24,000 nucleotides of DNA from an uncultured Oscillospiraceae bacterium (lineage in GTDB: Bacteria; Bacillota; Clostridia; Oscillospirales; Ruminococcaceae), in contig CAYJJJ010000004.1 in assembly GCA_964370465.1 (NCBI GenBank), positions 12,643 to 36,642 on the forward strand, given 5' to 3'. This document shows, piece after piece, positions 3,452-21,871 of the stretch. Below the pieces are notes generated by a model, which made no database searches, was not told the origin of the DNA, and was given only the letters and a program-made list of their open reading frames with translations. The position numbers and the translations under genes are program-made. Numbering within the stretch: position 1 is the stretch's first letter; the number at the start of each line of letters is the position of its first letter.

Positions 3452-4033
3452 TCACCTATCTTCATAAATTTTTAGTATTCCCTCAGCAACTGCCCGACGT
3501 GTAATTCTGCCGTCCATTGCTTGTTTTTCAATATGTCTGTGAGCGTCTTCTTCGCTCATACTCAAATATGAAATAAGCAGATGTTTCGCCCTATCGATAA
3601 TTTTTATATCTTCAATTGTAGAAATAAGTTTTGCGTTTTCTTTTTCCATAATTGATAGCCTATTAAATGAAGCTTTTGCGAGTTTTAGTGAAAACCAAAA
3701 TATATTTCTGTTAAGTGGTTTTGAAACAGTTATGACACCAAAATCCTCGACTTTGCGTGATACTTCGTCGTAGTAATCATTATTTACAAGTAAAATAACT
3801 TGGCTTTTGTGTTTTGATGTGATGTCTATAGAGAGCCGCTCACCAGTTTCATCTTTTAGTGGAAAGTTAATTATTACTATATCAAATTCCTGTTCATTTA
3901 GTTTTCGCCGAGCCTCTGAAACAGAGGTAGCAATTACTATTCGTTCCAAAGAAAATTCGCTCAGTTGTTGTTTTATAAAATCAGTTGCTTTTGATACACT
4001 TGATACAATTAGTCCCGTTTCGATATATGCCAC
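3452..4033 (-). CDS. ANTAR-domain RNA-binding antiterminator with an atypical (pseudo-)receiver N-terminal domain
   Basis: 193 aa, GTG start preceded by GGAGGAGG. The C-terminal segment IIDRAKHLLISYLSMSEEDAHRHIEKQAMDGRITRRAVAEGIL fits the ANTAR helical pattern. The N-terminal ~120 aa has a receiver-like beta-alpha layout and keeps the conserved K-P (VSKPL). It has SS where the acidic pair is expected and N56 in FDIVIIN where the phospho-acceptor Asp is expected. Confidence 0.85.
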   Translation of the reverse strand: MAYIETGLIVSSVSKATDFIKQQLSEFSLERIVIATSVSEARRKLNEQEFDIVIINFPLKDETGERLSIDITSKHKSQVILLVNNDYYDEVSRKVEDFGVITVSKPLNRNIFWFSLKLAKASFNRLSIMEKENAKLISTIEDIKIIDRAKHLLISYLSMSEEDAHRHIEKQAMDGRITRRAVAEGILKIYEDR

Positions 4034-4056
4034 CTCCTCCGTAAATTATTTTAAAT

Positions 4057-5349
4057 TTAAAACTGACGGAAATAGTTGAGTTCTGAAAATTCGCAGTTAT
4101 CAAGATTGCTTTCAAAACGAACAATCTCATTGCGCTTCTTATCGAGATAATCAGCAAGGAAACTCTCACCCACTACCGATGAAACAAATTCTGATTTTGA
4201 AGCTACTTCGAGTGCTGTCTTCAAGTCGCTTGGAAGCTTTTTGAAATTATTCTCAATTGGTGAATCATAGTTTGTCTTTTCATCTAAGGTGAGGTTATTT
4301 TCAATTCCGTAAAGCCCTGATGCAATTATAAGTGCATACGCTATATATGGATTTACTGTAGGGTCCGGGGAGCGAAGTGTTACCCGTGTGCGTTTGTTGT
4401 CGATTTTTGGCGTTGTTAAAAGCTGAAGTGTGTTATTCTCAGACCAACAGATGTCTGACGGTGCAAACATCTCGCCAAAGCGATCATATGAGTTTATATT
4501 TGGATTTAAAAAAGCTGTAATCTCTTCAATTTTTGACATAATGCCAGCTATAAAGCTCTCTGCAACTGCCGAGTTTTCTGAGAATATATTTTCTCCGCCT
4601 TTATTAAGTGAAAGATTAATATGCATACCACTTCCGTCTTTATCGGGTAATGGTTTGGGCATAAATGAAGCAAAAAGGCCGTTTCTCGCTGCAATAGCTT
4701 TTACTACCGACTTGAAAGTCAAGAAATTGTCAGCAGACTGCAAAGCATCTCTGTATTTGAAATCTATTTCATTTTGACCAGGACCTTTTTCGTGATATGA
4801 TGTTTCGGGGTGAAGTCCCATCTCCTCAAGTGTTAAGCAGATTTCTCTTCTGATATTTTCACCCTTATCGAGTGGTGCGATATCGAGATATCCGCCGTTA
4901 TCAAGCGTTTCATAAGTGGGCTCGCCGTTTTCATCTGTTTTGAAAAGATAAAACTCACAGTCAGCGCCAATTTTGCATCTGTAACCCATATCTGCCGCCT
5001 GTGCAAGCACCTTTTCTAAAATATATCTGCTATCTCTATCATATCGCTTTCCATCAGGTGTTTTAATATCACAGTAAAAGCGAATAACTCTGCCGGGATC
5101 TGGTCGCCAAGGTAGAACAGTCAGAGTTGTGGCGATAGGGAATAGTCTTAGTTCGCATTGCTTTGTTCCTTCGAATCCCTCTATTGCAAATCCATCGAAT
5201 GAAACCCCTTTTTCAAATGCATCTTCAAGCTCTTCACTTAGTATAGAGATGTTTTTATGAAAGCCAAATGGGCAACAAAAGCTAAGCCTTATAAATTTAA
5301 CATCGTTATCTGCTGCGAAGTTTAGTATCTCTTTATTAGTAGTGTTCAT
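4057..5349 (-). CDS. glnA: Glutamine synthetase, type I family (short, 430 aa)
   Basis: GS beta-grasp N-domain (VKFIRLSFCCPFG...) and catalytic domain with EFYLF, HHEKGPGQNEIDF-like (YHEKGPGQNEIDF), GSGMHINLSL and NPYIAYALIIASGLYGI. A consensus promoter and a leader lie upstream. Confidence 0.9.
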   Translation of the reverse strand: MNTTNKEILNFAADNDVKFIRLSFCCPFGFHKNISILSEELEDAFEKGVSFDGFAIEGFEGTKQCELRLFPIATTLTVLPWRPDPGRVIRFYCDIKTPDGKRYDRDSRYILEKVLAQAADMGYRCKIGADCEFYLFKTDENGEPTYETLDNGGYLDIAPLDKGENIRREICLTLEEMGLHPETSYHEKGPGQNEIDFKYRDALQSADNFLTFKSVVKAIAARNGLFASFMPKPLPDKDGSGMHINLSLNKGGENIFSENSAVAESFIAGIMSKIEEITAFLNPNINSYDRFGEMFAPSDICWSENNTLQLLTTPKIDNKRTRVTLRSPDPTVNPYIAYALIIASGLYGIENNLTLDEKTNYDSPIENNFKKLPSDLKTALEVASKSEFVSSVVGESFLADYLDKKRNEIVRFESNLDNCEFSELNYFRQF

Positions 5350-5423
5350 ATCAATTGACCTTTCTTTATAATGTAGATATAAATATAGTATTATTATTTT
5401 TTGTCTTTTTCAATATAAAAAAT

Positions 5424-5492
5424 AAAAAAGCGGTCATCAATCAGAGGTTAGGTGTCTGCTGACACGTTATCTGATGATGAACGCCGTTGTTC
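5424..5492 (-). promoter_or_regulatory. glnA 5' leader element: hexaloop hairpin overlapping an intrinsic terminator (attenuator)
   Basis: Minus-strand RNA. Hairpin GAAC (5492-5489), loop AACGGC (5488-5483), GUUC (5482-5479). Long hairpin: 5' arm 5484-5471 pairs with 3' arm 5444-5430 (13 bp, one mismatch, one bulge). Apical hairpin GUGUC-AGCA-GACAC. U6 follows directly at 5429-5424. The small hairpin and the terminator base share nucleotides, so they are mutually exclusive. Confidence 0.6.
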
Positions 5493-5501
5493 TCGGTATT
5501 T

Positions 5502-5530
5502 ATTATAAACCTCTGAAATGTAAATGTCAA
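5502..5530 (-). promoter_or_regulatory. Sigma-A type promoter for the glnA operon
   Basis: On the minus strand: TTGACA (5530-5525), 17-nt spacer, TATAAT (5507-5502). This is a perfect consensus. The predicted TSS near 5495 lies 2-3 nt before the leader hairpin. Confidence 0.7.
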
Positions 5531-5552
5531 CAAAAAAATATTAAAAAAAATG

Positions 5553-5581
5553 TTGACAATGAAATGAGGCTGTGATATACT
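5553..5581 (+). promoter_or_regulatory. Sigma-A type promoter for asnA-glnN
   Basis: TTGACA (5553-5558), 17-nt spacer, TATACT (5576-5581). The predicted TSS near 5588 lies about 5 nt before the leader hairpin. Confidence 0.7.
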
Positions 5582-5593
5582 GCAAAGCATAGA

Positions 5594-5638
5594 CAGCAAA
5601 GGCGCTGTGAGCTTTATTAGCTTGCAGTGTCTTTTTTT
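5594..5638 (+). promoter_or_regulatory. asnA 5' leader element: hexaloop hairpin overlapping an intrinsic terminator (attenuator)
   Basis: Hairpin CAGC (5594-5597), loop AAAGGC (5598-5603), GCUG (5604-5607). Terminator: 5' arm 5601-5613 pairs with 3' arm 5619-5631 (13 bp including 4 G-U pairs), loop UUAUU, followed directly by U7 (5632-5638). The hexaloop 3' half and the 3' stem form the base of the terminator. Confidence 0.6.
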
Positions 5639-5685
5639 GTTTTTAACAAGCAAGTTGTTTTCAAAATTGAGAGGAGAAAAAAGTT

Positions 5686-6693
5686 ATGAGTATTACAAAA
5701 ACAGTTGAAGGTTATAAATCGGCACTGTCGGTTTATGAAACGCAAAAAGCTATTGGCATGTTGAAGAGGAGCTTTGAAGATAATCTTTCGACAAAACTCA
5801 ATTTAGCAAGAGTATCGGCACCACTTTTTGTTTTACCGACAACTGGTCTTAACGATGATCTCAACGGAGTGGAACGTGCAGTTGCATTTGATGTTTTGGA
5901 AACAGGGGAGGAACTGCAGATAGTTCACTCACTTGCAAAATGGAAAAGAATGGCACTTCACAAATATGACTTTAAAGTCGGGGAAGGACTCTACACCGAC
6001 ATGAACGCCATAAGACGTGATGAGGAGATGGATAATCTCCATTCTATATATGTTGATCAGTGGGACTGGGAGAAGGTTATTAGCCGCGAGATTAGAACAG
6101 TAGAGGAGCTCAAAGCAACTGTAGTAAAGATAGTAGATGCTATCTGTGATACACAAGATGTTGTAAAAGCAGCTCATCCAGAACTCAAAACAACACTTTC
6201 AAGAGATGTTAAGTTTGTAACCACTGGGGAGCTTTTGGATATCTATCCAACGCTTACACCTAAAGAGAGGGAAGATGCATACCTCAAAGAGCATAAAACA
6301 GCATTCATTATGCAGATTGGCGATAAGCTAAAAGACGGCATTAAGCACGACGGAAGAGCCCCGGACTACGACGACTGGGCGTTAAACGGAGATATTGTTT
6401 TCTGGAGCGATGTGCTAGGATGTGCATTTGAAATTTCGTCTATGGGAATTCGTGTTGATGAAGTGTCGCTTGCGCAGCAGCTGAAAAAAGCTGGATGCGA
6501 AGAGCGCCGCGATTTACCATTCCACAAAGCTCTGCTCGCAGGGGAGCTACCACTCACAATGGGTGGCGGTATCGGTCAATCGAGATGTTGTATGTTGTTG
6601 CTTGAAAAAGCGCACATAGGTGAAGTTCAAGTTTCATACTGGGATAAAGCGACTGTTTCGAGTTGTGAGTCCAGCGGTATAACACTACTATAA
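5686..6693 (+). CDS. asnA: Aspartate--ammonia ligase (asparagine synthetase A)
   Basis: 335 aa. Blocks match AsnA as I remember it: [64 protein letters not shown] lies upstream. Confidence 0.93.
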
Positions 6694-6715
6694 TATAATG
6701 CAAGGAGTTAGTATT

Positions 6716-8803
6716 ATGAAAGATGTTCCAAATTTATTCGGAAGTTTAGTATTCAACGATAAGGTGATGAGGGCAAGACTTCCAAAAGATGTATATAAGA
6801 CGCTCAAAAGAACTATGGCAATGGGCAAGCATTTAGATGCTGACATTGCAAACGTAGTTGCTAATGCTATGAAAAACTGGGCGCTTGAAAAAGGTGCCAC
6901 ACACTTTACCCACTGGTTCCAGCCGATGACCGGTATAACAGCTGAAAAGCACGATAGCTTTATATCTCCAACTGATGATGGTAGTATTATAATGGAGCTT
7001 ACAGGTAAAGAGCTTATCAAAGGTGAGCCAGACGCTTCGAGTTTTCCATCAGGTGGTCTTCGTGTAACATTTGAGGCGAGAGGTTATACAGTTTGGGATA
7101 CAACATCTTATGCATTTATAAAGGATGAAACACTCTGCATACCAACTGCATTCTGCTCATATAGTGGTGAGGCGCTCGATAAAAAGACTCCTCTATTGCG
7201 CTCGATGGAAGCTATCGACAAGCAGGCTATGCGAGTGCTCCGTCTGTTTGGCAATGACAAGGCAAAAAGAGTTAATACAACAGTAGGACCAGAGCAAGAG
7301 TATTTCCTTGTTGATAAAGAGATGTATAAAAAGCGCCCCGACCTTATAAGTTGTGGCAGAACACTTTTCGGAGCAAGACCTGCTAAAGGTCAGGAGATGG
7401 ATGACCACTATTTTGGTAGTTTAAAGTCGAGGGTTTCAGCTTATATGAAAGAGCTCGATGAGGAGCTCTGGAAGCTTGGTATTTTTGCAAAGACAAAGCA
7501 CAATGAAGTGGCTCCTGCTCAGCACGAATTTGCACCTATCTTTACAACAACAAATATAGCGACTGACCACAATCAGCTAACAATGGAGCTTATGAAGAGC
7601 ATTGCAAATAAGCATGATCTTGTTTGTTTACTCCATGAAAAACCTTTTGCAGGTGTTAATGGAAGCGGTAAACACAACAACTGGTCCATTTCAACCGACA
7701 CAGGAACAAACCTGTTAGAGCCAGGAGAAACTCCACACGAAAATGCACAGTTTTTGCTATTCCTATCAGCTGTTGTGAAAGCTGTTGATATCTATCAAGA
7801 TATGCTTCGTATTTCGGTAGCTTCTGCTGGGAATGATCATCGCCTTGGTGCAAATGAAGCACCTCCGGCAATAGTTTCAATCTTCCTTGGTGATGAGCTC
7901 ACCGATATACTCGACGCTCTAAAAGGCGGTAATGACTACGAGGATAAAGGTAAAGTTGAAATGCAGATAGGTGCGAGCGTACTACCGCACTTTAGAAGAG
8001 ATACAACAGATAGAAACCGTACATCTCCTTTTGCATTTACAGGGAATAAGTTTGAGTTTAGAATGCTCGGCTCGGCTTTCTCGATATCTGGACCAAATAT
8101 TGTACTAAATGCAGCTGTTGCAGATGTGTTAGAAGGATTTGCAAACACTCTTGAAGGGGCGAAAGACTTTAACACAGCACTAAAAGAGCTAATTGCAAAA
8201 ACTATTAATGAACACGATAGAATAATATTTAACGGCAACAACTACTCTGATGAGTGGGTTGAAGAAGCAAAACGCAGAGGTCTATCAAATCTTATGACAA
8301 CTGTAGATGCGCTTCCAAGATTTATTGATAAAAAGAATATAGATATGTTTGTCCGCCAGGGAGTATTTACCGAAACAGAAATAATTTCGAGATACGAAAT
8401 TCTTCTTGAAAACTACTGTAAAACTGTCCATATAGAAGCGCTTACAATGGTTGACTTAGTAAATAAATATATCACACATTCTTCTTATGCATATCAAAAT
8501 GATCTTATGAAGCTCTATACAAGCAAAGAGAGTGCTGGATTTGATGTAACAGCAGAAAAAGCTCTTATAAATAAAATCTCACGCATAACTGCTTCATTAG
8601 TAGACAGCACAGACAGACTTTCAAGCAATCTTCTCAAAGTTAAATCAATTGAAGATTCTCTAGAGCATGCAAAGTTCTATCGCAGTAAGGTAGCACACTG
8701 TATGAATGAGATAAGACTTTCGGTTGACGAACTTGAGACAGTGATAGCTAAAAAACACTGGTATTTCCCATACTACTCAGAGCTGTTATACAGTGTTGAT
8801 TAA
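6716..8803 (+). CDS. glnN: Glutamine synthetase type III
   Basis: The ORF track starts at 6698. I prefer the ATG at 6716 ([15 protein letters not shown]...) because AAGGAG lies at about 6702-6707. The ~695 aa length and the blocks [23 protein letters not shown] and [16 protein letters not shown] are characteristic of GSIII. Confidence 0.92.
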
Positions 8804-9001: not shown

Positions 9002-10678
9002 ATGTTTTCAGCAGTAGACACAATTTGGACGTTACTCGGGGCGGCGCTCGTCTTCTTTATGCAGGCGGGGTTTGCAATGGTAGAGACAGGATTTACAAGG
9101 GCGAAGAATGCCGGTAACATCATCATGAAAAACCTTATGGACTTCTCACTTGGTAGCGTTATGTTCTGGTTTATAGGTTTTGGGCTTATGTTTGGAGGCG
9201 ATGGCGCTTTTATTGGCGGTCTTGATTTTTTCATACAAGGTGATTATGGCTCGTCTATTCCATCGGCGGCATTTATTATATTCCAAACTGTATTCTGTGC
9301 CACAGCGGCAACTATTGTTTCAGGTGCGATGGCTGAAAGAACAAAATTCTCGACCTACTGTATCTACAGTATTATAATAAGTGCGGTTGTTTACCCAATT
9401 TCAGGTCACTGGATATGGGGAGGCGGCTGGCTATCACAGATGGGCTTCCACGATTTTGCAGGATCAACAGCAGTTCATATGGTAGGTGGTGTTGCGGCAC
9501 TTGTAGGAGCTAAGATAATTGGCCCTCGTATTGGAAAATTCAGCAAAAGCGGAAAGGTGCGAGCAATACCTGGTCACAGTTTAACACTTGGTGCTCTTGG
9601 CGTATTTATTCTTTGGTTCTGCTGGTTTGGATTCAACGGTGGTTCAACTGTTTCAATGACAGATGGCGCTATAGAGTCAGCGGCTAACATATTTATGACA
9701 ACAAACATAGCGGCGGCGGCAGCTGCAGCAGCTGTTATGATAATAACATGGATAAGATACAAAAAACCAGACGTATCGATGACACTCAATGGCGCGCTCG
9801 CAGGACTTGTTGGAATAACTGCTGGTTGTGATGTGGTTTCACCTACAGGTGCATTCTTTATAGGTTTAATCTCTGCATTTGTAGTAGTATTTGGAATTGA
9901 GTTTGTTGAGAAGATACTAAAAATTGATGACCCAGTTGGTGCTGTTGGCGTACATGGAATGTGCGGTGCTGTTGGTACAATACTCGTCGGTGTGTTTGCG
10001 CTCGAAGGCGGTCTTGCTTACGGCGGTGGATTTGACTATCTGATAGTTCAGCTTATAGGTGTTGGAGCGGTTATTGCTTGGGTTGCTGTTACCATGACAA
10101 TTGTATTTACAGTTCTTAAAAAGACAATCGGTATAAGAGTAACAAGGGCGGAAGAGCAAGCTGGACTCGATATAGAAGAGCATGGACTTGTAAGCAGTTA
10201 TGCAGACTTTGTGCCTGTAACTCACGGTGCAAACTTTGTTGCAAAACCAGAAGTAGAAGAGGCGCTCGAAGTGGCGGCTGTAGATGTTGCTATACCAGTA
10301 GTTGATAACTCAAAAGCAGGTGCTAAAATGACTAAAGTAGTTATCATAACAAAACGCAACAGGTTTGAACTTCTAAAATCAGCGCTTGACAGCATAGAGA
10401 TAACAGGTATGACTGTAACAGAAGTTCTCGGTTGTGGAATACAAAAAGGTGTTACAGAGCTATACCGTGGTACACCGCTTGAAACAACACTTCTACCAAA
10501 AATCAAAGTTGAGGTTGTTGTCTGCAAAGTGCCAGTACAAACTGTTGTAGATACAGTTAAAAAAGCGTTATACACAGGAAACATCGGCGATGGTAAAATA
10601 TTTATCTATGATGTTGAGAACGTTATAAAAGTTAGAACTGGCGAGCAGGGTTATGATGCTCTTCAGGATGTTGAATAA
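9002..10678 (+). CDS. amtB: Ammonium transporter (Amt family) fused in-frame to a C-terminal PII (GlnK/GlnB) nitrogen-signalling domain
   Basis: One uninterrupted 558-aa ORF. Residues 1 to ~400 are a multi-TM Amt domain (FFMQAGFAMVETG, DFAGSTAVHMVGG, FGFNGGS, DPVGAVGVHGMCG). An acidic linker of about 45 aa follows. The last ~115 aa, MTKVVIITKRNRFELLKSALDSIEITGMTVTEVLGCGIQKGVTELYRGT...GDGKIFIYDVENVIKVRTGEQG, are an unmistakable PII fold sequence with the T-loop Tyr. Confidence 0.9.
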   Translation: MFSAVDTIWTLLGAALVFFMQAGFAMVETGFTRAKNAGNIIMKNLMDFSLGSVMFWFIGFGLMFGGDGAFIGGLDFFIQGDYGSSIPSAAFIIFQTVFCATAATIVSGAMAERTKFSTYCIYSIIISAVVYPISGHWIWGGGWLSQMGFHDFAGSTAVHMVGGVAALVGAKIIGPRIGKFSKSGKVRAIPGHSLTLGALGVFILWFCWFGFNGGSTVSMTDGAIESAANIFMTTNIAAAAAAAAVMIITWIRYKKPDVSMTLNGALAGLVGITAGCDVVSPTGAFFIGLISAFVVVFGIEFVEKILKIDDPVGAVGVHGMCGAVGTILVGVFALEGGLAYGGGFDYLIVQLIGVGAVIAWVAVTMTIVFTVLKKTIGIRVTRAEEQAGLDIEEHGLVSSYADFVPVTHGANFVAKPEVEEALEVAAVDVAIPVVDNSKAGAKMTKVVIITKRNRFELLKSALDSIEITGMTVTEVLGCGIQKGVTELYRGTPLETTLLPKIKVEVVVCKVPVQTVVDTVKKALYTGNIGDGKIFIYDVENVIKVRTGEQGYDALQDVE

Positions 10679-11183: not shown

Positions 11184-11241
11184 GGTTTTGGGCAAAAGGT
11201 TATATAAGTAAAGGGTTTCAAATAATATTGTGGGAGGATTT

Positions 11242-13266
11242 ATGAATTGTAAAAAATGTAACACACTGATTCCATTGCATGGTGCATATTGTCCTAATTG
11301 TAAAGAGCCGGTTACGGATTTTGTGATTTTACAGAACGGTATACAAAATAGCTATGCAGATGAACAGAATTTTGATTATTATCAAAATGATACTTCTCAG
11401 CCAGAAAGTGAAACAGAAATTATTATACAACCACAGCAGGTAACAAATGATAACTCAAATAAATTTTTAGACAAACTCGAGCGAAAGATAAAAAAAATAA
11501 TTGATATTCTCATAAAATTCTTTAAAAGCTTAACTCCTATAAAAATATGCATACTGATAACATTTGCGATTGTAATAATTATAGGTTTTTCTTTCATTTT
11601 TAATAGTATTATAAGTTTTATTGATGAAATGAATGGTATTATAAGCATTGACAGTGAGTATAACGATTACATAGACTTAGAATATTCAGCAGCTTATAGA
11701 GATATAGAAAAAGAGGGATTTACTAATATAGAATTATTAGAATTAAATGACTTAGAAAGCAGTATTGATGACAAGCTAGTAACTGAGATAACTATTGATG
11801 GTGAATCAGAGTTTTACAGTGGCGATAAGTTTAGTTTAGATTCAAAAGTAGTTATAACATATCATACAGTTTTACAACTAACTTCACCACTAGATGCATC
11901 TCAAACAATAGGGAAAAACTTTGAGGAAATAAAAAATGAATTTGAATTAGCTGGTTTTAGCGATGTGCGAACAGTTGGACTTGAAGATTTGAAATCGGAT
12001 GACATAAATCTTTATAATGTTGAAGAGGTGACAATCGACAGTTCGCAAAATTTCAATTCAGAAGAAATGTTTCCAAAAGATTCTGTAATAAAAATTTACT
12101 ACCATTCACCAATGCAAATAGAGATTCCGGTCAGTTCTGAAGATATGGAATTTGAAAACTATGAATTATATTTGGATATGTTTGAGAGGGCAGGGTTTAC
12201 AAATATATCAACCGAAAAAATTGAAGATCTCATAATAGGTTTTCTTGTATCAGACGGAGAAATTGAAAAAGTAACTGTTGATGGTAATGATAATTTTCAG
12301 AAAGGTGAAAGCTATCCTCCTGATGTTGAAATAGTATTTTATTACCATACTTTCCCTGGCGACGATGAAGAAGAGAATACTGATGAAAACACTGAAGAAG
12401 CAGAATTGCTTGAAGAATATTTTCCGCAAGAGATGGCGAAACGAGCAATTATAGTTGCAATGACTAATCACAACGCTATAGATGTTTTCTCGGAAGACGG
12501 AAACACAAGAGACCCATCTAAGTTTCACAGCTATTCAGATAAATCAGATTATTATATAACCATATATGAAGATGGTGTTTGGGAAGCAGTCAATGATTAT
12601 ACTTGGTATGTCGAAGATTTGGTTCTTGAACTTCACGGCTATACATTCTTAAAGGTTTCACTTGAAATCGCTTATGATGAGATTTTTTATTATATTGAGA
12701 ATGGAACTCTCACAATAGCTAATCTTGAAAATATAAATTCGTCAGACCCTAATAAAATTTCAGTTGAAGAGCTGATAAACAATGCAAACAATCCTCAACT
12801 GACGGTTTCTCCGGATTTAATTGTTGAAGACAGAATAGAGGAATTTGATGATATTGAAGATGAATCTATTGATGAAGTTCCCGAAAGCATTCCTGATGAT
12901 TCAACATCTTCCGGAAGTGAATCAGGATTTTCGCACTATGAATGGAACAGCTGGGTTAATTCACAGTTTAGTATTTGGGATGGTTCGCACAATGATTTTG
13001 AGGAGTTAATCAAGGATAATTTAAATGATGAACGCTCATATAGTCACATAGAAACAACTTTTATAGCGATAAGTGATGAAAATGTAAAAAACGATGTTTT
13101 ATCAATTTTACAGGGAGCTGGCGTCAATACTACATTAGAAATATATGATGTATTTATTATGTGTGAATTTTCAGCAAAAAATGCTTTTGATGCTACAATT
13201 AAAAATACAGCACTTGGTGTTGTGAGCTATGAAAACAATACAATTACACTAATAACAGTTTTATAA
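11242..13266 (+). CDS. Zinc-ribbon, single-pass membrane protein with three tandem ~65-aa extracytoplasmic repeats, an acidic linker and two uncharacterised C-terminal domains (674 aa)
   Basis: The ORF track starts at GTG 11230. I prefer the ATG at 11242, preceded by GGGAGGA. N-terminal CKKCN...CPNCKEP is a zinc ribbon. The TM helix is ICILITFAIVIIIGFSFIFNSIISFI. Three repeats lie at 11680-11868, 11911-12108 and 12151-12351. They share the pattern (E/D)xxGFxx(I/V)...(V/I)xx(I/V)T(I/V)DG/S..F.....(F/Y)......V.I.YH. Acidic runs follow (DDEEENTDENTEEAE; EEFDDIEDESIDE). No homolog was recognised for the C-terminal part. Confidence 0.75.
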   Translation: MNCKKCNTLIPLHGAYCPNCKEPVTDFVILQNGIQNSYADEQNFDYYQNDTSQPESETEIIIQPQQVTNDNSNKFLDKLERKIKKIIDILIKFFKSLTPIKICILITFAIVIIIGFSFIFNSIISFIDEMNGIISIDSEYNDYIDLEYSAAYRDIEKEGFTNIELLELNDLESSIDDKLVTEITIDGESEFYSGDKFSLDSKVVITYHTVLQLTSPLDASQTIGKNFEEIKNEFELAGFSDVRTVGLEDLKSDDINLYNVEEVTIDSSQNFNSEEMFPKDSVIKIYYHSPMQIEIPVSSEDMEFENYELYLDMFERAGFTNISTEKIEDLIIGFLVSDGEIEKVTVDGNDNFQKGESYPPDVEIVFYYHTFPGDDEEENTDENTEEAELLEEYFPQEMAKRAIIVAMTNHNAIDVFSEDGNTRDPSKFHSYSDKSDYYITIYEDGVWEAVNDYTWYVEDLVLELHGYTFLKVSLEIAYDEIFYYIENGTLTIANLENINSSDPNKISVEELINNANNPQLTVSPDLIVEDRIEEFDDIEDESIDEVPESIPDDSTSSGSESGFSHYEWNSWVNSQFSIWDGSHNDFEELIKDNLNDERSYSHIETTFIAISDENVKNDVLSILQGAGVNTTLEIYDVFIMCEFSAKNAFDATIKNTALGVVSYENNTITLITVL

Positions 13267-13297
13267 AATAGGCTAATAATATTAGTAACTAATCTGA

Positions 13298-13339
13298 AAA
13301 ACACCCATCGTTTTGAATTTTCAAAACGATGGGTGTTTT
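13298..13339. terminator. Bidirectional intrinsic terminator
   Basis: Near-perfect long hairpin ACACCCATCGTTTTGAA / TTCAAAACGATGGGTGT (13301-13336). A-run on the left and T-run on the right. It lies between the convergent 674-aa gene and the glycyl-radical enzyme gene. Confidence 0.8.
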
Positions 13340-13357
13340 AAACCTACAAATATAATG

Positions 13358-13420
13358 CTAAACCATTCGCACTTTGCGCTCTTTTAGCTTGTTTGCTCGG
13401 TAGTTAGCACTGCCGAGGTG
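13358..13420 (-). repeat. 63-bp direct repeat, copy B: the functional 3' end (codons 481-500 plus stop) of the glycyl-radical enzyme gene
   Basis: Identical to 10793-10855. It starts exactly at the stop codon and ends exactly on a codon boundary (21 codons). Confidence 0.9.
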
Positions 13421-14860
13421 GATGGTGTTTTGAAGCACCGTTTCACCGCTCTCATGCTTTGCCATCTCACTGCGTTTAACAAGGTATCCAGTTATACGAA
13501 CAAGATCGGAGTCCGCTGCATAGAAGCTCATATAGTGAACACCCTCGCTAAATGCACCTTTGACAACGTCAGCAAGCGCCGCTGGGTTTTGTTCTATATT
13601 TGTAGCTATTGGGAATATATCGCCAACGCCCGCTGGGAAATATTTATGATATCTCGCAGAGTGGCGGAGATGATCGATAAAGTTATCTGGCTCATCACCG
13701 ACAGGGATGCGCACACCAGATGTAACTCCGATATCAGAATCAAGCCCTACCTGTGCATGAAGCACAAACTTGTTGTCAGTGAGAGGGGAGTATACTGCAT
13801 CAAAACTATCGACTGTCGCTTTAATCTTATCCATTATACGAACTGCCAAAATATTTGCCTCTTCATCTCTGCCATACTGCAAATCTTTATCTTTGAGCAG
13901 GCCATTAACAGCCTCCGCAAGACCAGTTACACCAAACATTGTAACAAACCTATCTTTATCCATAAGTCCTTCTTTTATCAGAAAATTTGACTCGAAGAAA
14001 CCGCTTTTTTCGACAAAGAATGAAACCCTCTCGTTTAAATAATCTGCCATTAGTTGCAAAACTTCAGGTAGCAGTTCTTCAACAAAATGCTCGACGCTAT
14101 TTGCATCTTCTATAAGTTTTGTGAGGGTTATTCTCGATAGGGTGTATGAGCCACCTGAAATCGGTAGGATATTATAACAGCTTGAAATGCCATACCCACC
14201 GTTATAGTAGTTAATATTTGCGGTGTCGTTGCAGATAGCGGGGTTTGAGCATTTTAATGAGGTTTTAACTGCAAGTGATAAAAAGTCATCAGTTGTCTTC
14301 TCGGGATTGTATTTAAGAGTTAAGTTTGGAACGGCATTCGAAAGCTCGCCGATAACTTTAATTATAAGCTCACCCGCCCTTGAAGGGGTAGCGGAGATAT
14401 TCGCATGGCAAAATGAGTCGGTAATAGTTCTGTCGAGGTAGGTGAAGAATAGTTTTAGTTTTCTCTCGACCTCCTCGTCGCTTATATCCTCGATAAAAGG
14501 CGCTATCATCGTATCTAAATCTCCGAGGTAAACAGGGAAGTTTGTAACAGATGGAACATGCCTATAAAGGGTCATGAGCGAGAAAATAAGTTCATCAAAA
14601 TCAGCTGGGGGAGTGAGTCCTAAAAATGCACTGCCGTTTTCTATGAATTTCTGATAATCTGGCATTGTGTATCTTGGGCAATATGGCGCTGAAAATCCCG
14701 ATAGGTCGTTTATAGCACCTGTTTCAAAAAAGTGCATCGCTCTCTCAGGGACATTTAAGACCTTCACCGAGCATGCTGCCGCATTCGCAAGTCCCATAAC
14801 CTTTTGTTCGTGGGTGAGCGTCTGCGAAGTTAATATGTTATATGCAAAATTGCTGTCCAT
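13358..14860 (-). CDS. yjjI: Putative glycyl-radical enzyme, YjjI-like family (DUF3029-type, ~500 aa), paralog 1
   Basis: 500 aa. The C-terminal glycyl-radical-type motif DLVRITGYLVKR has its Gly codon at 13487-13489. The gene lies immediately downstream of a radical-SAM activase. The ~500 aa size is much shorter than PFL-class enzymes and matches the YjjI family as I remember it. The protein aligns along its whole length with the ORF at 15730-17235. Confidence 0.65.
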   Translation of the reverse strand: MDSNFAYNILTSQTLTHEQKVMGLANAAACSVKVLNVPERAMHFFETGAINDLSGFSAPYCPRYTMPDYQKFIENGSAFLGLTPPADFDELIFSLMTLYRHVPSVTNFPVYLGDLDTMIAPFIEDISDEEVERKLKLFFTYLDRTITDSFCHANISATPSRAGELIIKVIGELSNAVPNLTLKYNPEKTTDDFLSLAVKTSLKCSNPAICNDTANINYYNGGYGISSCYNILPISGGSYTLSRITLTKLIEDANSVEHFVEELLPEVLQLMADYLNERVSFFVEKSGFFESNFLIKEGLMDKDRFVTMFGVTGLAEAVNGLLKDKDLQYGRDEEANILAVRIMDKIKATVDSFDAVYSPLTDNKFVLHAQVGLDSDIGVTSGVRIPVGDEPDNFIDHLRHSARYHKYFPAGVGDIFPIATNIEQNPAALADVVKGAFSEGVHYMSFYAADSDLVRITGYLVKRSEMAKHESGETVLQNTIHLGSANYRANKLKERKVRMV

Positions 14861-14878
14861 CGTATCTTCCTTTCAATA

Positions 14879-15733
14879 TTAAACGGTTAAAATATCTTTA
14901 AATCCTACCGACTGCGCAAGGGCTTTAAGCCTTTGCAACTCATCGTCACTTGTTGCAGGTAAACTACTATATTCGCCACGCACACCAATAGGGCGGAAGG
15001 CGATTAACTTTAGTTTTGTTGAAAGTCCTTTTTCACCGATAAGCTTTGCGGACTGGGTTATAATCCTATCTGCATCAACTTTTCCCGGTATTACAACTAT
15101 TCGAAGTTCGGTGAGTTTTCCCTCATCTGCGAAAAATTTCAGGTTTTTCCGAACTATATCATCGTTTCTATCAAGTGTTACATCATAATATACATCGCTA
15201 TCCCAAGACTTTACATCGAGCATAACGCCGTCGGTAACTGCCATAAGCTCATCTTCTTCTGTGAGGTCGATAGTGCCATTAGTGTCAATAAGGCAAGTTA
15301 GATTTTTTTGGCGCACGAGGCGGAAAAGCTCTGTTAGATATCCGATATTCAGGCAACATTCACCGCCCGAAACTGATATGCCTCGAATAAATGCACCGCT
15401 ATCCTCAATGATTTTAAGCGTGTCTGCCGGTGTCTGTCGCTCGACTTTAGGGGATGCGAAGTGCGGACATACTCGAATACATTCATCGCACTTCACGCAT
15501 TTATTCTTATCCCACAAAACTGCATCACCGCTTTGGGTGAGCGCCTTTGTAGGACATAATAAAACGCACTCTCCACACCCGATACAAAAGTTTTGAGTTT
15601 CGGGGTTGTGGCAGTATTTGCATTTTATATTGCAGTTTTGAAGAAATATCGATGTGCGAGCACCGGGACCATCGACTGTGCTTATAGGGATAATGTTATT
15701 TACATATGCAAAAGAGCTTTGCCCGTTTATCAT
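14879..15733 (-). CDS. yjjW: Glycyl-radical enzyme activating protein (radical SAM, YjjW-like)
   Basis: 284 aa. The radical-SAM cluster motif is CNIKCKYCHNPET (CX3CX2C), preceded by VDGPGARTSIFLQNC. Two ferredoxin-like motifs follow: CIGCGECVLLCP and CVKCDECIRVCP. The ATG overlaps the upstream gene stop (ATGA at 15730-15733). Confidence 0.85.
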   Translation of the reverse strand: MINGQSSFAYVNNIIPISTVDGPGARTSIFLQNCNIKCKYCHNPETQNFCIGCGECVLLCPTKALTQSGDAVLWDKNKCVKCDECIRVCPHFASPKVERQTPADTLKIIEDSGAFIRGISVSGGECCLNIGYLTELFRLVRQKNLTCLIDTNGTIDLTEEDELMAVTDGVMLDVKSWDSDVYYDVTLDRNDDIVRKNLKFFADEGKLTELRIVVIPGKVDADRIITQSAKLIGEKGLSTKLKLIAFRPIGVRGEYSSLPATSDDELQRLKALAQSVGFKDILTV

Positions 15734-17235
15734 AGCATTCGCACCTTGCGCTCGCCAAGGCTTGCAACTTCATAAAACTCAGCGCCGCCACCTGTTATAT
15801 CGTTAATAACAGCTTCGCCGTTTTTGAATTTCTCCATCTCACTGCGCTTTACAAGGTAGCCCGATATACGGACAACATCGGTATCAGCTGAGTAGAAACT
15901 CATATAGTGAACTCCAGCGGAGAATGCGCCTTTTACAACGTCTACAAGGGATTCTGGGTTATTCACAACGTTTGGAGCTATCGGGAAGATATCGCCAACA
16001 CCAGTTGGGAAGTATTTGTGGAATCTGCCTGAATGGCGAAGATGTGCCGAGAAATCCTCTGGCTCATCGCCTATAGGGATACGAACACCAGCTGAAACAT
16101 TTGTATCAACGCGGCCTAGTCCCACCTGCGCGTGCAGTAGGAATTTTCCGCCTGTAAGAGGAGAGTAGACAGCGTCAAAGCTATTTACAACTTCTTCCAT
16201 CTTATCCATTATGCGAACAGCTAAATCGTCCGCCTCTTTATCAATACCATATTTAAGCCCTTTGTCTTGTAACAGAATATTAACGCACTCAGCAAGCCCT
16301 GTTACACCAAACATAGCAAGAAATCTATCCTTATCCATAAGTCCTTCTTTTATAAGGAAGCTCGACTCAAAAAATCCGCTCTTCTCTACTAAAAAGGTTA
16401 TTCTTTGGTTCATATAGTCGGCAATTATCTCAAGAACTTCAGGCATAAGCTCATTGATGAAATGCTCGACAGAAGTGGCTTCTAATGCAAGTTTTGCAGG
16501 AGTTATTCTTGTGAGGGTATAAGCGCCGCCGCAGTTTGGCAGAATGTTGTAACAACTTGCAACACCGTAGTCGCCGTCGTAGTAGTTTGAATTTGCAACG
16601 TCGTTGCAGATTGCAGGGTTTGAGCTCTTAAGCGACGCTCTAATAGCTTCTGCAAGGAAACTGTCAGGTGTTTTTTCGCTGTTGTATTTTATAGTCCAGT
16701 TTGGAACTGTGCTCTGCATATCGCCGGCAACTTTAAGTAGAAGTCTGCCAGCTCTTGTCTCAACTGGCTCAATTGTTGCGTGACAGAATGAGTCGTTTAT
16801 TGTTTTATCGAGGTAGCTTAAAAACAACTTTAATTTTTTCATAACTTCCTCATCACTCATATCGGTGATAAATGGGTCAATGAGTTTATCAAGTTCACCT
16901 AAAAAAACAGGGAAGTTTGTAATTGAAGGGATATGGCGATACAAAATCATAAGAGAAAAGATAAGCTCGTCAAGGTCAGCTGGTGGTTTTAATCCTAAGA
17001 ACTCACTGCCATTTTTGACAAACTTATGGTAATCAGGCATAGTGTATCTTGGTCGATAGGGAGCAGCGCCCTCCCACAAATCATTAATAGCGCCTGTGTC
17101 GAAAAAGTGCTGAGCTCTCTCTGAGATATTTAAAACAGAGATTGAGTTTTCGGCAATTTTTGCAAGCCCCATAACCTTTTGTTCGTGAGTAAGAGATTTA
17201 CTCGTTACTTTTTCATAAGCTAAATTTGTGTCCAT
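15730..17235 (-). CDS. yjjI: Putative glycyl-radical enzyme, YjjI-like family, paralog 2
   Basis: The ORF track extends to a TTG at 17256. I prefer the ATG at 17235 (MDTNLAYEKVTSKSLTHEQKVMGLA), which aligns with the paralog 1 N-terminus (MDSNFAYNILTSQTLTHEQKVMGLA) and has AAAGGAA upstream. The C-terminal motif is DVVRISGYLVKR. Blocks shared with paralog 1 are NPAICND, SCYNILP and DIFPIA. Confidence 0.65.
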   Translation of the reverse strand: MDTNLAYEKVTSKSLTHEQKVMGLAKIAENSISVLNISERAQHFFDTGAINDLWEGAAPYRPRYTMPDYHKFVKNGSEFLGLKPPADLDELIFSLMILYRHIPSITNFPVFLGELDKLIDPFITDMSDEEVMKKLKLFLSYLDKTINDSFCHATIEPVETRAGRLLLKVAGDMQSTVPNWTIKYNSEKTPDSFLAEAIRASLKSSNPAICNDVANSNYYDGDYGVASCYNILPNCGGAYTLTRITPAKLALEATSVEHFINELMPEVLEIIADYMNQRITFLVEKSGFFESSFLIKEGLMDKDRFLAMFGVTGLAECVNILLQDKGLKYGIDKEADDLAVRIMDKMEEVVNSFDAVYSPLTGGKFLLHAQVGLGRVDTNVSAGVRIPIGDEPEDFSAHLRHSGRFHKYFPTGVGDIFPIAPNVVNNPESLVDVVKGAFSAGVHYMSFYSADTDVVRISGYLVKRSEMEKFKNGEAVINDITGGGAEFYEVASLGERKVRML

Positions 17236-17236
17236 A

Positions 17237-17929
17237 CTAGTTTCCTTTCTTTTCAATAAGCCTTATAAGTTTATTATATTCATCTTCACTGAGATGTATT
17301 TTACCACGTTTTAGTCGAATTGTCTTTTCATCACTCAACTTTTTTATTGCTCTGTTTGTGCTTCGGGTTGAAATTCCAAGTTTTTCAGCTATTTCGTTTC
17401 GATTTTGGTTGACATAAACATCTGCAGTTTCTTCATCTTCATAGTAGGAGATGAGAAATCGAATGAGTCGCTCTGTTGCCGATAAGAATATTGTCTGTTG
17501 AGTTACAGCTCCCTGCCAAAGCAAGACATTTAGAATTCGCCTTGTCCGATGAAGCATTATCTCGGTGTCACTGGTTAACCAGCTCATATAATCCTCGAGA
17601 TTTATCCGAAGGAAGTCGCAGTCGCTCTTTGCAATAACATCGACGATAATTTTATCAGTGCCTATTAAAAGCTCATACTCACAGAACAGCTCAGGGTCTG
17701 TAAAGTCGTGTGATGCAAAACTTCCAAATCCCTCTTGATTTGTAATAGTTGCGACTCTGCCAGAAAGCATAAACCATATATACCGAACATCATCGTCAAA
17801 GCGGAGAATATAGTCGCCTTTTTTAAATTGAACAAGTTTGATGCTCACATCAGAGAGGAAATCCCCTAAAACACTTTTGGCTGCTTTTGTTAAATTGTTG
17901 TTGCTGTTTAGAAATTCACAATACTTCAT
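17237..17929 (-). CDS. Crp/Fnr-family transcriptional regulator
   Basis: 230 aa. The N-terminal cNMP-binding-like barrel contains FKKGDYILRFDDDVRYIWFMLSGRV. The C-terminal HTH is RNEIAEKLGISTRSTNRAIKKLSDEKTI. No FNR-type N-terminal Cys cluster is present. The stop lies 1 nt before the ATG of the downstream glycyl-radical enzyme gene. Confidence 0.8.
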   Translation of the reverse strand: MKYCEFLNSNNNLTKAAKSVLGDFLSDVSIKLVQFKKGDYILRFDDDVRYIWFMLSGRVATITNQEGFGSFASHDFTDPELFCEYELLIGTDKIIVDVIAKSDCDFLRINLEDYMSWLTSDTEIMLHRTRRILNVLLWQGAVTQQTIFLSATERLIRFLISYYEDEETADVYVNQNRNEIAEKLGISTRSTNRAIKKLSDEKTIRLKRGKIHLSEDEYNKLIRLIEKKGN

Positions 17930-18070
17930 AAATTAATTCTTTCAAGATTATCTATATTACAAATACAGTATATCACTAACATTTTAATAAAAATAGGACA
18001 TGTGGCATAAAATATATTTTTCTATTATTGTGACAAAACAGGGAAGGGTAGATTGGGCATTTTGACATAT

Positions 18071-18099
18071 AAAAAACCCTGTGTAATACAGGGTTTTTT
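18071..18099. terminator. Bidirectional intrinsic terminator after pyrE
   Basis: AAAAAACCCTGT-GTAAT-ACAGGGTTTTTT: 8-bp stem AACCCTGT/ACAGGGTT, with an A-run on one side and a T-run on the other. Confidence 0.8.
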
Positions 18100-20029: not shown

Positions 20030-20058
20030 ATTATAGCACAATTTGTATATTTTGTCAA
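20030..20058 (-). promoter_or_regulatory. Sigma-A type promoter of the rpsF-ssb-rpsR operon
   Basis: On the minus strand: TTGACA (20058-20053), 17-nt spacer, TATAAT (20035-20030). This is a perfect consensus. The -35 overlaps the galU stop codon. Confidence 0.7.
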
Positions 20059-20924
20059 AGAGTTTTCGCAATATCCTTTAGATACTCTCTAAAGCTCTCC
20101 CCAATTTCGGGGTGGGAGAGCGCTGTTTCAACAGAAGCTTGCATAATGCCAAGCTTATTTCCCATATCATATCTTGTTGACTTGTAATTAACGCCAATCA
20201 TTCCATCTCTGTTTGCTAAAACTTTCATAGCGTCGGTGAGCTGAATTTCGCCGCCGGCACCAGGAGGGGTTGTTTTTAAAATCTCGAATATTTCAGGAGA
20301 GAGAACAACTCGTCCGAGAATTGAAAAGAGGCTTTTCTCTTCGCCGGGAGCAGGTTTTTCAATCATGTCGCTAATTTCATATAGACCATCTGGCAGGGGA
20401 GCTGTATCGAGGGAGCTGTATTTAGAAATGTCCGCTTTTGGCACCTCTTTAATTCCAGCCACAGATTTGTTGTACTTAATATATCCATCGATTAGCTCTT
20501 TTGTTGCGGGTGTCTCACCGATAACAACATCATCGCCATAGAGGATAGCAAAAGGCTCGCCACCGACAAAATTTTCAGCGCAGAGGATAGCGTGGCCAAG
20601 GCCTTTCATCTCTTTTTGGCGAACAAAGGTGATGTTTGCAAGGTTTGCAGGGTCAACTATGCTCTTTAAAAGTGCATGTTTCTCAGGGGTCTGAAGTCGG
20701 CGCTCAAGCTCTTCATGTCTATCAAAATGATCTTCAATGGCGCTCTTTCCCTTTGAAATAATAATTAGAATATCTGTTATACCGCTTGCCACAGCCTCTT
20801 CAACAATATATTGAATAGCTGGTTTATCGACAATTGGAAACATCTCTTTTGGTATTGCTTTTGTCGCGGGCAGAACCCTTGTTCCAAATCCCGCCGCTGG
20901 AATAACTGCTTTTGTTATCTTCAT
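20055..20924 (-). CDS. galU: UTP--glucose-1-phosphate uridylyltransferase
   Basis: 289 aa. KAVIPAAGFGTRVLPATKAIPKEMFPIVDKPAIQYIVEEA is the GalU signature. The ATG overlaps the upstream stop by 4 nt. Confidence 0.93.
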   Translation of the reverse strand: MKITKAVIPAAGFGTRVLPATKAIPKEMFPIVDKPAIQYIVEEAVASGITDILIIISKGKSAIEDHFDRHEELERRLQTPEKHALLKSIVDPANLANITFVRQKEMKGLGHAILCAENFVGGEPFAILYGDDVVIGETPATKELIDGYIKYNKSVAGIKEVPKADISKYSSLDTAPLPDGLYEISDMIEKPAPGEEKSLFSILGRVVLSPEIFEILKTTPPGAGGEIQLTDAMKVLANRDGMIGVNYKSTRYDMGNKLGIMQASVETALSHPEIGESFREYLKDIAKTL

Positions 20925-21871
20925 GCTACAACTCCTCCTGATAAACTCATATATATTGCCGGTATCATTCCGCTGAAAAAAGCGATGTAAATAATAGCTA
21001 AACCTACTAAACAGGCAATCGCCGCAAAGGTACTGACGCCACCTTTTTTATAAATAGCTGTTTTTCTTGCATTTTCATCGGGGTAGCCTGCAGCGTTTAT
21101 AGCTTTTATATCCGAAATGACCCTTTTCTTATAGAGCTTGTTTGCGAGAAACAGAGGGGCGAAATTCGCGGCGATACCAATAATCCAAATTATCAGCGAT
21201 ACCACACCTATACTGCTCACTTCCATTATAATTTGATAGAATTCCGGCAGAAAAGATAGGTTTATGTTTGGGTATATAGTTGATGGATTTTGTAAAAAGT
21301 AGGTGAGAGATGTCACTGTTCCCAATATTGCAAGGATAATACCATATAGGTACTCTTTTCTATAAAATAGATAAATCGGACCTAAAAAAAACGCTGCAAA
21401 GTTGAACATTGGTCGGTTATGCTCAAACGAACTTATGAAATAGTGGCTATTTTTCTGGGTGTATGCTTCGATGTCCGCAGCAGAAACACCATCGATTTTT
21501 CTCTCAGGGTCACGGTAAACAGGCTGATAACCAAACGGAGTGAATGGTGGTTGCTGTTGTTGTCCGCCAAACTGGTTTGGTTGTTGATTGTTTGCGAAAA
21601 CAGGTGTTGCGCAGTTTGGGCAGAATAGCGCGGTATCGGAAAGTGAATGGTTGCAGTTTTTGCAGGTAAGTGATTTACCCTCCGCCTCATATGTAACAGA
21701 AGGTTCACGCTCATAAATAAAGCCCTCAGCATGGAATTCGTCGTTTGCGCATCTACCATTTTCAGAGTAACAGTTTCTGTGGTGAGGGGTACCGCAAGTT
21801 GGGCAAACTACCTTTGTGGGGTTATCTATTTCATTTTGACATATAGGGCAGGTATCTTTTTTATTTATCAT
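20921..21871 (-). CDS. Membrane protein with N-terminal prokaryotic RING-like zinc finger, second zinc ribbon, Q/P-rich linker and DUF2628-like multi-TM C-terminus
   Basis: 316 aa. CPICQNEI...VCPTCGTPHHRNCYSENGRCAN is RING-like. CKNCNHSL...FCPNCATP is a zinc ribbon. The linker is NNQQPNQFGGQQQQPPF. FNFAAFFLGPIYLFYRKEYLYG plus further hydrophobic helices resemble DUF2628. The domain names come from memory, not from a search. Confidence 0.7.
   Translation of the reverse strand: MINKKDTCPICQNEIDNPTKVVCPTCGTPHHRNCYSENGRCANDEFHAEGFIYEREPSVTYEAEGKSLTCKNCNHSLSDTALFCPNCATPVFANNQQPNQFGGQQQQPPFTPFGYQPVYRDPERKIDGVSAADIEAYTQKNSHYFISSFEHNRPMFNFAAFFLGPIYLFYRKEYLYGIILAILGTVTSLTYFLQNPSTIYPNINLSFLPEFYQIIMEVSSIGVVSLIIWIIGIAANFAPLFLANKLYKKRVISDIKAINAAGYPDENARKTAIYKKGGVSTFAAIACLVGLAIIYIAFFSGMIPAIYMSLSGGVVA

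Follow-up and report, generated by a model that had tools for sequence, protein, structure and literature searches.

Glycyl radical enzymes (GREs) have repeatedly been shown to run key anaerobic reactions, and the YjjI enzymes with their YjjW activases, which occur in E. coli, Haemophilus and many gut anaerobes, are among the few GRE families without an assigned reaction. Here, we describe a YjjI/YjjW operon with two enzyme genes, YjjI-A and YjjI-B, located in a 24,000-nucleotide (nt) stretch of DNA (hereafter the window) of an uncultured Oscillospiraceae bacterium (assembly GCA_964370465.1, contig CAYJJJ010000004.1, positions 12,643 to 36,642). The yjjI and yjjW genes of E. coli are listed as FNR-activated, and those of Yersinia intermedia are anaerobically induced. 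A preprint of August 2026 reports that a radical-trapping probe labels Gly465 of E. coli YjjI in vivo, and it still describes YjjI as an uncharacterized putative GRE. In E. coli and Salmonella, yjjI co-clusters with nar genes and bears FNR/NarL-like motifs; in a study of 2011, yjjI fell into a bicluster with nar genes, and a part in nitrogen metabolism was conjectured from this co-expression. A genome note on H. influenzae lists the YjjI enzyme, a radical-SAM protein and a NupC-type nucleoside transporter together. In the literature and databases that we searched, no paper assigning a reaction, substrate or product to YjjI was found, and PDB sequence searches with YjjI-A alone and with the family profile returned no related chain. 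The statement of the initial annotation of this DNA, made from the letters alone, that no substrate, product or structure has been assigned thus still holds for these sources.

On balance and with modest confidence, we favor the reading that the operon encodes an autoregulated anaerobic YjjI/YjjW thiyl-radical system, in which an enzyme with an NrdD-like fold would act on a nucleoside-derived ribosyl substrate under the control of a class II activator. The family is known and can be annotated automatically; what is new at this locus is the architecture, which combines two paralogs with a single activase and a coupled regulator. The window itself contributes an unusual arrangement of genes and not a novel type of system. 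The assignment of a reaction to YjjI could expose a missing step in the anaerobic use of nucleosides, and the comparative results below supply candidate substrates, a predicted catalytic Cys-Gly pair, and a predicted operator with its regulator.

An operon of two YjjI enzymes and one activase

The four genes, in the order Crp/Fnr-type regulator, YjjI-B, YjjW activase and YjjI-A, form one tightly coupled operon on the minus strand (17929-13358). Its features, from the upstream end and with positions counted from the first letter of the window, are the following.

18071-18099, minus strand: terminator-like hairpin AAAAAACCCTG...CAGGGTTTTTT, 3' of the upstream phosphoribosyltransferase gene; read by eye
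17996-18007, minus strand: candidate operator TGCCACATGTCC, an imperfect palindrome 23 nt upstream of the -10 hexamer
17967-17972, minus strand: probable -10 hexamer TATACT with TGA in front (extended -10-like), as judged from the sequence
17237-17929, minus strand: regulator of the Crp/Fnr family, 230 amino acids (aa), with a cNMP-binding-like sensor domain and a Crp-type helix-turn-helix (HTH)
15730-17235, minus strand: YjjI-B, 501 aa from the ATG, the more diverged paralog; predicted thiyl Cys228 at 16552-16554, predicted radical Gly459 at 15859-15861
14879-15733, minus strand: YjjW, glycyl-radical activase, 284 aa; CX3CX2C motif at 15611-15634, two CX2CX2CX3C motifs within 15467-15586
13358-14860, minus strand: YjjI-A, 500 aa, the more conservative paralog; predicted thiyl Cys228 at 14177-14179, predicted radical Gly458 at 13487-13489
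13291-13344, minus strand: intrinsic terminator with hairpin and U run, closing the operon

All four minus-strand open reading frames (ORFs) of the initial annotation are present at these places, and its tight junctions were each confirmed by direct reading. The stop codon of the regulator gene (TAG, 17239-17237) is followed after 1 nt by the ATG of YjjI-B at 17235, the stop of YjjI-B and the start of YjjW overlap in an ATGA at 15733-15730, and between YjjW and YjjI-A there is an 18-nt spacer carrying GAAAGGAAG ahead of the ATG at 14860. The mechanical ORF of YjjI-B reaches back to a TTG at 17256, and the identical public protein P0018 (501 aa) begins at the ATG. Behind YjjI-A, a hairpin of about 24 bp (-28.6 kcal/mol, z = -8.6 versus shuffles) is followed by a U run. 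This terminator was missed by a generic terminator scan and was located by reading and then folded; it is possibly bidirectional, serving also the convergent plus-strand gene that ends at 13266. At the other end of the operon, the hairpin at 18099-18071 parts the phosphoribosyltransferase gene from the operon promoter, and the promoter region comes next. Rfam and tRNA scans of the window gave no matches. The locus is thus a self-contained operon whose genes are translationally coupled and share one promoter region and one terminator.

Both enzymes and the activase can be placed with high confidence among the full-length members of the YjjI/YjjW family, as the initial annotation had proposed. 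With the NCBIfam model of YjjI (TIGR04040, cut-off 498.3 bits), YjjI-A scored 614.4 and YjjI-B 616.9 bits over profile positions 4-497 of 497, and with PF11230 ("Glycyl radical enzyme YjjI-like", formerly DUF3029) YjjI-A reached 646 and YjjI-B 647 bits across positions 1-485 of 485. The activase scored 351.2 bits with TIGR04041 (cut-off 250.2). The E-values of the family models, 1e-185 and 1e-105, exclude chance as an explanation of these matches. At 90% identity, the YjjI proteins fall into more than 2,400 clusters, but 1.84 billion representatives hold only about 20 full-length YjjI clusters when grouped at 50% identity, so YjjI is widespread yet compact in sequence.

The two paralogs, estimated by eye to be about two-thirds identical, share 67% identity (336/501). 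The glycyl-radical fingerprints noted near both C-termini were verified by translation as VRITG458YLVK in YjjI-A and VRISG459YLVK in YjjI-B, 42 residues before the C-terminus. The conservation of this glycine among homologs was then checked: G458 and the S227-C228-Y229-N230 block are invariant in an alignment that covers 39-75% identity and includes E. coli YjjI, in which the glycine corresponding to G458/G459 is likewise kept. Two cysteine blocks, NPAICND and SCYNILP, occur in both copies and had been suggested as sources of the thiyl radical; the SCYN cysteines, too, were verified by translation. For SCYN this suggestion stood, since C228 is invariant. For NPAICN it did not: E. coli YjjI has Ala in place of its cysteine, which was rejected as a universal thiyl site because it is not kept in enterics. 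Across alignments of the enteric, Lachnospiraceae-like and main Firmicute branches, C228 and the radical glycine are the sole invariant Cys and Gly candidates. C210 (of NPAICN) and C151 are confined to the Firmicute branch; E. coli YjjI has Ala at C210 and Met at C151. As a side observation, C151 and C210 (window positions 14408-14410 and 14231-14233 in YjjI-A) are invariant in 74 Firmicute-type YjjI proteins. They could represent a branch-specific redox or reductant-coupling feature.

In the activase, Radical_SAM and Fer4 domains were detected, and the positions of the cysteines of the radical-SAM CX3CX2C motif (C34-X3-C38-X2-C41) and of the two reported 4Fe-4S ferredoxin motifs (C50/53/56/60 and C79/82/85/89) were verified. 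YjjW also matched TIGR02494, at 134 bits, as well as the models of the HypD and HpsH activases. The presence of one activase for the two paralogs was confirmed, its gene lying between the two enzyme genes. Among the 160 loci collected from genomes and metagenomes, 132 have a YjjW match, and the order is YjjI then YjjW wherever the contig allows it to be seen.

The system closest to that of the window is YjjI/YjjW of E. coli (b4380/b4379). The window proteins score above the cut-offs of the same family models, and the two systems share the enzyme-then-activase order, the glycine motif, the SCYN cysteine and the three-cluster architecture of the activase; identity to the E. coli counterpart is 39% for YjjI-A and likewise 39% for YjjW. 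The window differs in having another enzyme gene behind that of the activase and a translationally coupled gene for a Crp/Fnr-type regulator upstream, whereas E. coli has no adjacent regulator and its genes are FNR/CRP-controlled. The window also has no adjacent deo operon, and its C151 and C210 are replaced by Met and Ala in the E. coli enzyme.

Predicted fold and likeness to NrdD

The comparison with the PFL and NrdD barrels that had been proposed was carried out with an AlphaFold2 model of YjjI-A, built from a 74-sequence alignment (mean pLDDT 86, pTM 0.88). The top 20 matches of this model in a Foldseek search against the PDB were all class III ribonucleotide reductases (RNRs), NrdD, with E-values of 1e-17 to 1e-14 and query-normalized TM-scores of 0.65-0.76, and PFL-like enzymes ranked lower. 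In the model, C228 and G458 each lie at the tip of a beta-hairpin, the arrangement that would be expected of the Cys and Gly finger loops. YjjI and NrdD also have R-x-x-G-Y-L in common in the glycyl loop, both are paired with a radical-SAM activase, and both share a genomic theme of nucleoside or nucleotide metabolism.

The sequence of YjjI was compared with NrdD by a profile alignment (hhalign). Against E. coli NrdD as a single sequence, the match of the YjjI family was too weak for use, and the comparison was redone against a six-sequence NrdD alignment, the numbering being checked against known T4 positions. In the resulting alignment, which is itself weak (probability 6.8%, E = 0.005), SC228YN stands opposite GC290RS of NrdD, so that the finger-loop thiyl cysteines would coincide, the invariant R63-Y64 stands opposite N78-C79, and Y239 opposite N311. 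Because of this weakness, the assignments at Cys79, apparently a Tyr in YjjI, and at Asn311, apparently not conserved, are tentative. YjjI is about 100-200 residues shorter than NrdD and lacks the ATP cone, and its partner activase, with two additional ferredoxin clusters, belongs to the PFL-AE/YjjW type and is not an NrdG. With the NrdD model TIGR02487 (cut-off 326 bits), YjjI-A scored 22.9 and YjjI-B 14.6 bits, both below the cut-off. The last 100 residues of YjjI-A and YjjI-B contain no cysteine, while C543, C546, C561 and C564 are invariant in NrdD; therefore, the Cys4 zinc site of NrdD is absent. A Pfam scan of YjjI gave weak NRDD matches and a local match to PF02901 around the Cys loop. 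YjjI thus appears to be NrdD-like in fold but to lack the features that define NrdD, and we do not file it as NrdD.

The likeness to the PFL-like GREs (PflB, PflD, HypD, CutC, and the diol dehydratases) consists of the ten-stranded barrel, at a lower structural rank, and of the local PF02901 match; their ferredoxin-domain activases are those that YjjW resembles most closely. On the other hand, YjjI has about 500 aa compared with 750-850 aa and no match to the Gly_radical domain (PF01228). The Cys loop reads C-x-E in GRE eliminases and CC in PFL, and in YjjI it reads C-x-N.

By analogy with described GREs, YjjW, with its one radical-SAM cluster and two auxiliary [4Fe-4S] clusters, would cleave S-adenosylmethionine and take a hydrogen atom from Gly458 of YjjI-A or Gly459 of YjjI-B. 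The glycyl radical would then oxidize Cys228 at the tip of the opposing beta-hairpin, and the resulting thiyl radical would take a hydrogen atom from the substrate. We have high confidence in this relay between the glycine and Cys228 and low confidence in any specific chemistry of YjjI. The most speculative step would be an RNR-like attack on the ribose ring, in which hydrogen abstraction is followed by loss of the adjacent hydroxyl. As the NrdD zinc site is absent and the second cysteine is apparently a Tyr, a redox-neutral elimination or a reduction with another reductant would be likelier than canonical reduction of nucleoside triphosphates (NTPs).

Gene neighborhood, regulator and substrate class

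To see which genes accompany YjjI elsewhere, species-representative genomes were scanned, which yielded 80 loci, and the neighboring ORFs were clustered and cluster representatives annotated with Pfam. The recurrent neighbors were a BMP/PnrA-type ABC transporter (binding protein, double ATPase and two permeases) and genes for cytidine deaminase (cdd), DeoC, a DeoD-type phosphorylase, phosphopentomutase, thymidine phosphorylase, and pseudouridine kinase and glycosidase (psuK/psuG). A nucleoside transport or catabolic gene was found within 10 kb in 54 of the 80 species-level loci, and in 43 of 51 when only loci of at least 15 kb were counted. The nearest such gene lies at a median distance of 140 bp from the YjjI block, and at 350 bp or less in 41 of 53 loci.

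The gene order varies by lineage. In some loci the transporter is followed by YjjI-YjjW, in others YjjI-YjjW is followed by cdd and the transporter, and in yet another arrangement psuG-psuK is divergent from regulator-YjjI-YjjW, with lacI-deoB-deoD and the transporter behind. In enterics, E. coli included, deoCABD is divergent from yjjI. In four loci (L058, L059, L060 and L063, about 8.7-14 kb), YjjI-YjjW sits between the binding-protein and ATPase genes of a BMP-type ABC operon and is presumably co-transcribed with the transporter. Since the linkage persists through varied orders and transporter families, a functional coupling is indicated, and hence we propose a nucleoside-derived substrate. 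This substrate class is the best-supported hypothesis, which we hold with moderate confidence; the comparative genomics suggests that the substrate would be either a nucleoside itself or a pentose phosphate that comes from a nucleoside. A separate observation concerns five loci (L012, L020, L022, L030 and L070) with a conserved block on the opposite strand 3' of YjjW, which encodes a 456-aa uridine-kinase/PRK and CYTH protein, followed by agmatine deiminase-like and carbamoylputrescine amidase-like genes that were named by eye only.

The regulator matched PF00027 and PF13545 above their gathering thresholds. Its best NCBIfam match was YeiL at 35.8 bits (cut-off 180), followed by CRP at 33.1 bits (cut-off 266), both far below the cut-offs. 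YeiL of E. coli is encoded among nucleoside and pseudouridine genes. The description of the regulator as Crp/Fnr-like and without an FNR-type Cys cluster proved correct: it has only three cysteines (4, 83, and 104), of which C104 alone is conserved among orthologous regulators. Of the 80 genome loci, 20 have the gene of an orthologous regulator immediately in front of YjjI, as do 40 of the 80 metagenome loci.

Upstream of these regulator genes, a conserved GGAC-N4-GTCC palindrome with a T tract (TTTT) was found, and 15 of its 19 matches in 1.35 Mb lie there. When eleven promoters were aligned by eye, the palindrome ended 22-23 nt ahead of a TATAAT-like hexamer. This spacing puts its center near -41, the geometry of class II activation by Crp/Fnr proteins. 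In many loci, a psuK-psuG or cdd-transporter operon diverges from the same intergenic region as that in which the palindrome is found. In the window the candidate operator reads TGCCACATGTCC, and the closest relative, L001, has the perfect palindrome TGCCAAGTGGCA. In the regulators of the window and L001 alone, RTVNR of the recognition helix is changed to RSTNR, and the half-site changes in step from GGACA to TGCCA, which suggests that recognition helix and operator covary. Like CRP, FNR and YeiL, the regulator combines a cNMP-binding-type sensor with HTH_Crp_2, and its candidate operator, a palindrome, is centered some 41 bp ahead of the predicted start, as in class II CRP/FNR promoters. Its predicted sites, GGACA-N2-TGTCC (TGCCA-N2-TGTCC in the window), differ from those of CRP and FNR, and it is without the FNR Cys cluster. 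The regulator would bind this palindrome and activate the operon in response to a ligand; it is not an FNR-type Fe-S sensor of oxygen. It is probably subject to ligand-dependent positive autoregulation.

Several points weigh against the reading of the operon as an autoregulated system for a nucleoside-derived ribosyl substrate. The neighborhood frequency of 54/80 stands without a random-locus control, about one-third of the loci have no nucleoside neighbor, and within the 24-kb window itself there is no nucleoside transporter or deo, cdd or psu gene, so that the substrate inference holds at the level of the family only. The geometry of the C228-G458 relay is predicted from the placement at hairpin tips in the model, and the Cys79-to-Tyr and Asn311 assignments come from the weak YjjI-NrdD profile alignment. 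The candidate operator of the window is imperfect, and the count of the motif within the window is at chance level.

In an alternative reading, the substrate is a small molecule unrelated to nucleosides, such as an organic acid, an amine or a sugar derivative, and the adjacency reflects only shared regulation, for example, in regulons for anaerobic starvation or scavenging. Such a substrate would fit the window and the loci that have no nucleoside genes nearby, as well as those that bear other ABC ATPases or agmatine deiminase genes, and binding proteins of the BMP family are not all nucleoside-specific. We nevertheless consider it unlikely. Three kinds of nucleoside locus are associated with YjjI (the BMP-type ABC transporter, NupC/CNT in Haemophilus and deoCABD in enterics), the orders differ by lineage with YjjI-YjjW within a transporter operon in some loci, and an NrdD-like fold suits a ribosyl substrate.

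With a nucleoside-derived substrate, the more specific proposal can be made that YjjI is a compact offshoot of the class III RNR fold that performs a new radical reaction on the ribose of imported nucleosides or pentose phosphates, with the two paralogs of the window as two specificities or an obligate heterodimer and the ligand-sensing Crp-type activator as the switch. In its entirety this proposal is possible but doubtful. On the ribose moiety, YjjI might catalyze an elimination or 2'-dehydration, or else a non-canonical reduction whose product feeds DeoC, and the paralogs might, for instance, distinguish purine from pyrimidine nucleosides, or ribonucleosides from modified ones. If this is true, YjjI would add a new step to the catabolism or salvage of nucleosides by anaerobes.

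The second enzyme copy, other readings and neighboring genes

No second YjjI was found within 10 kb in any of the 80 loci of species-representative genomes. Among the 80 metagenome loci there was one, L104, with the order enzyme-activase-enzyme and copies that are 87% identical. In this unrelated lineage, an Erysipelotrichaceae-like species carrying P0067, the YjjI-YjjW-YjjI arrangement occupies 5983-10042 of L104 and recurs in L164-L171; it was seen on at least eight contigs from different samples. The L104-type locus is without a Crp-type regulator and has a gene of the UDG superfamily in front. A metagenome-assembled genome (MAG) of the same species, L009, has copy 1 only (100% identical), which is either a strain polymorphism or an assembly collapse. 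The enzyme-activase-enzyme layout is thus rare and arose at least twice independently, and the idea that the duplication is unique to the genome of the window was rejected on account of this second lineage. The idea of a B-type subfamily was likewise rejected, as no ortholog of YjjI-B closer than 68% was found among 5.8 billion proteins; a metagenome scan with YjjI-B alone also gave no relatives.

In neighbor-joining trees, YjjI-A, YjjI-B and P0002 formed a clade in 197 of 200 bootstraps, and YjjI-A grouped with P0002 in 188 of 200. Judged from these trees, the duplication of the window is lineage-specific and fairly old, predating the split of A and P0002, and B is the faster-evolving copy. 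All family-invariant residues are kept in both copies. Non-conservative changes at otherwise strongly conserved sites fall at 54-61 in A and at 154-156 and 374-381 in B, and those of A align, in the weak alignment described above, beside the region of the NrdD active-site Cys79. This pattern would fit divergence of the substrate pocket, or a heteromer, better than decay. A and B would use the common activase and either differ in substrate preference or form a heterodimer, and the diverged pair offers a natural contrast for mapping the determinants of specificity.

That the second copy instead adds only redundancy or gene dosage, or is being lost, with neither a heteromer nor a new specificity, seems improbable. 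In favor of it, the copies of the independent lineage with the same layout are still 87% identical, and one MAG has a single copy. In the window, however, two copies of 67% identity have both kept the invariant positions and the tight translational coupling, they are altered at different conserved sites, and B predates the A/P0002 split (188/200).

Still less probable is an identity of YjjI as a reduced, alternative form of anaerobic NTP reductase whose products are deoxyribonucleotides. NrdD provides the best structural matches, the weak NRDD Pfam matches point in the same direction, and the GYL motif and the aligned thiyl cysteine are shared. Nevertheless, the score of 22.9 bits with the NrdD model is far from its cut-off of 326, there is no C-terminal Cys4 zinc site, Cys79 stands opposite an invariant Tyr and Asn311 is not conserved (in the weak alignment), and E. 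coli has NrdDG besides YjjI.

The initial annotation had left open whether the neighboring nitrogen-assimilation cluster is meaningful. The adjacency is real, with glnA, an ANTAR regulator, asnA, a type III glutamine synthetase (GS) and an AmtB-PII fusion lying at least 2.7 kb from the YjjI operon, but in the 81 other loci of the ORF clustering these genes do not recur, the one exception being an ORF in a single locus that resembles an ammonium transporter. We therefore regard the adjacency as coincidental, and the link to nitrogen assimilation was rejected because it is not conserved. A role of the system in nitrogen metabolism, as would follow from the adjoining glnA, asnA, GS-III and amtB-PII genes and from the 2011 co-expression prediction for E. 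coli, is highly improbable, since the co-clustering with nar and the FNR/NarL-like motifs of E. coli and Salmonella yjjI can be explained by common anaerobic activation by FNR, the genes of the window recur, with the one exception, in 0/81 other loci, and a convergent 678-aa gene and a terminator divide the two clusters.

Some further features of the window were observed. At 3452-8803, an ANTAR regulator gene lies directly downstream of a type I glutamine synthetase gene on the minus strand, next to divergent asnA and type III glutamine synthetase genes, so that the window holds two types of glutamine synthetase side by side. The plus-strand ORF at 9002-10678 encodes 558 aa and fuses an ammonium transporter (residues 9-396) to a P-II domain (443-548). 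The 678-aa ORF at 11230-13266 (plus strand), convergent on the terminator of the YjjI operon, has no Pfam match and lies in the stretch of the window with the lowest GC content (28-34%); its product combines a zinc-ribbon-like CxxC...CxxC motif at the N-terminal end with a hydrophobic segment and with several modules of about 70 residues that are repeated and have very acidic linkers. On the minus strand at 20921-21871, a gene for a 316-aa protein with a Prok-RING_1 finger and a zinc ribbon overlaps the start of a nucleotidyl-transferase-like gene (20055-20924).

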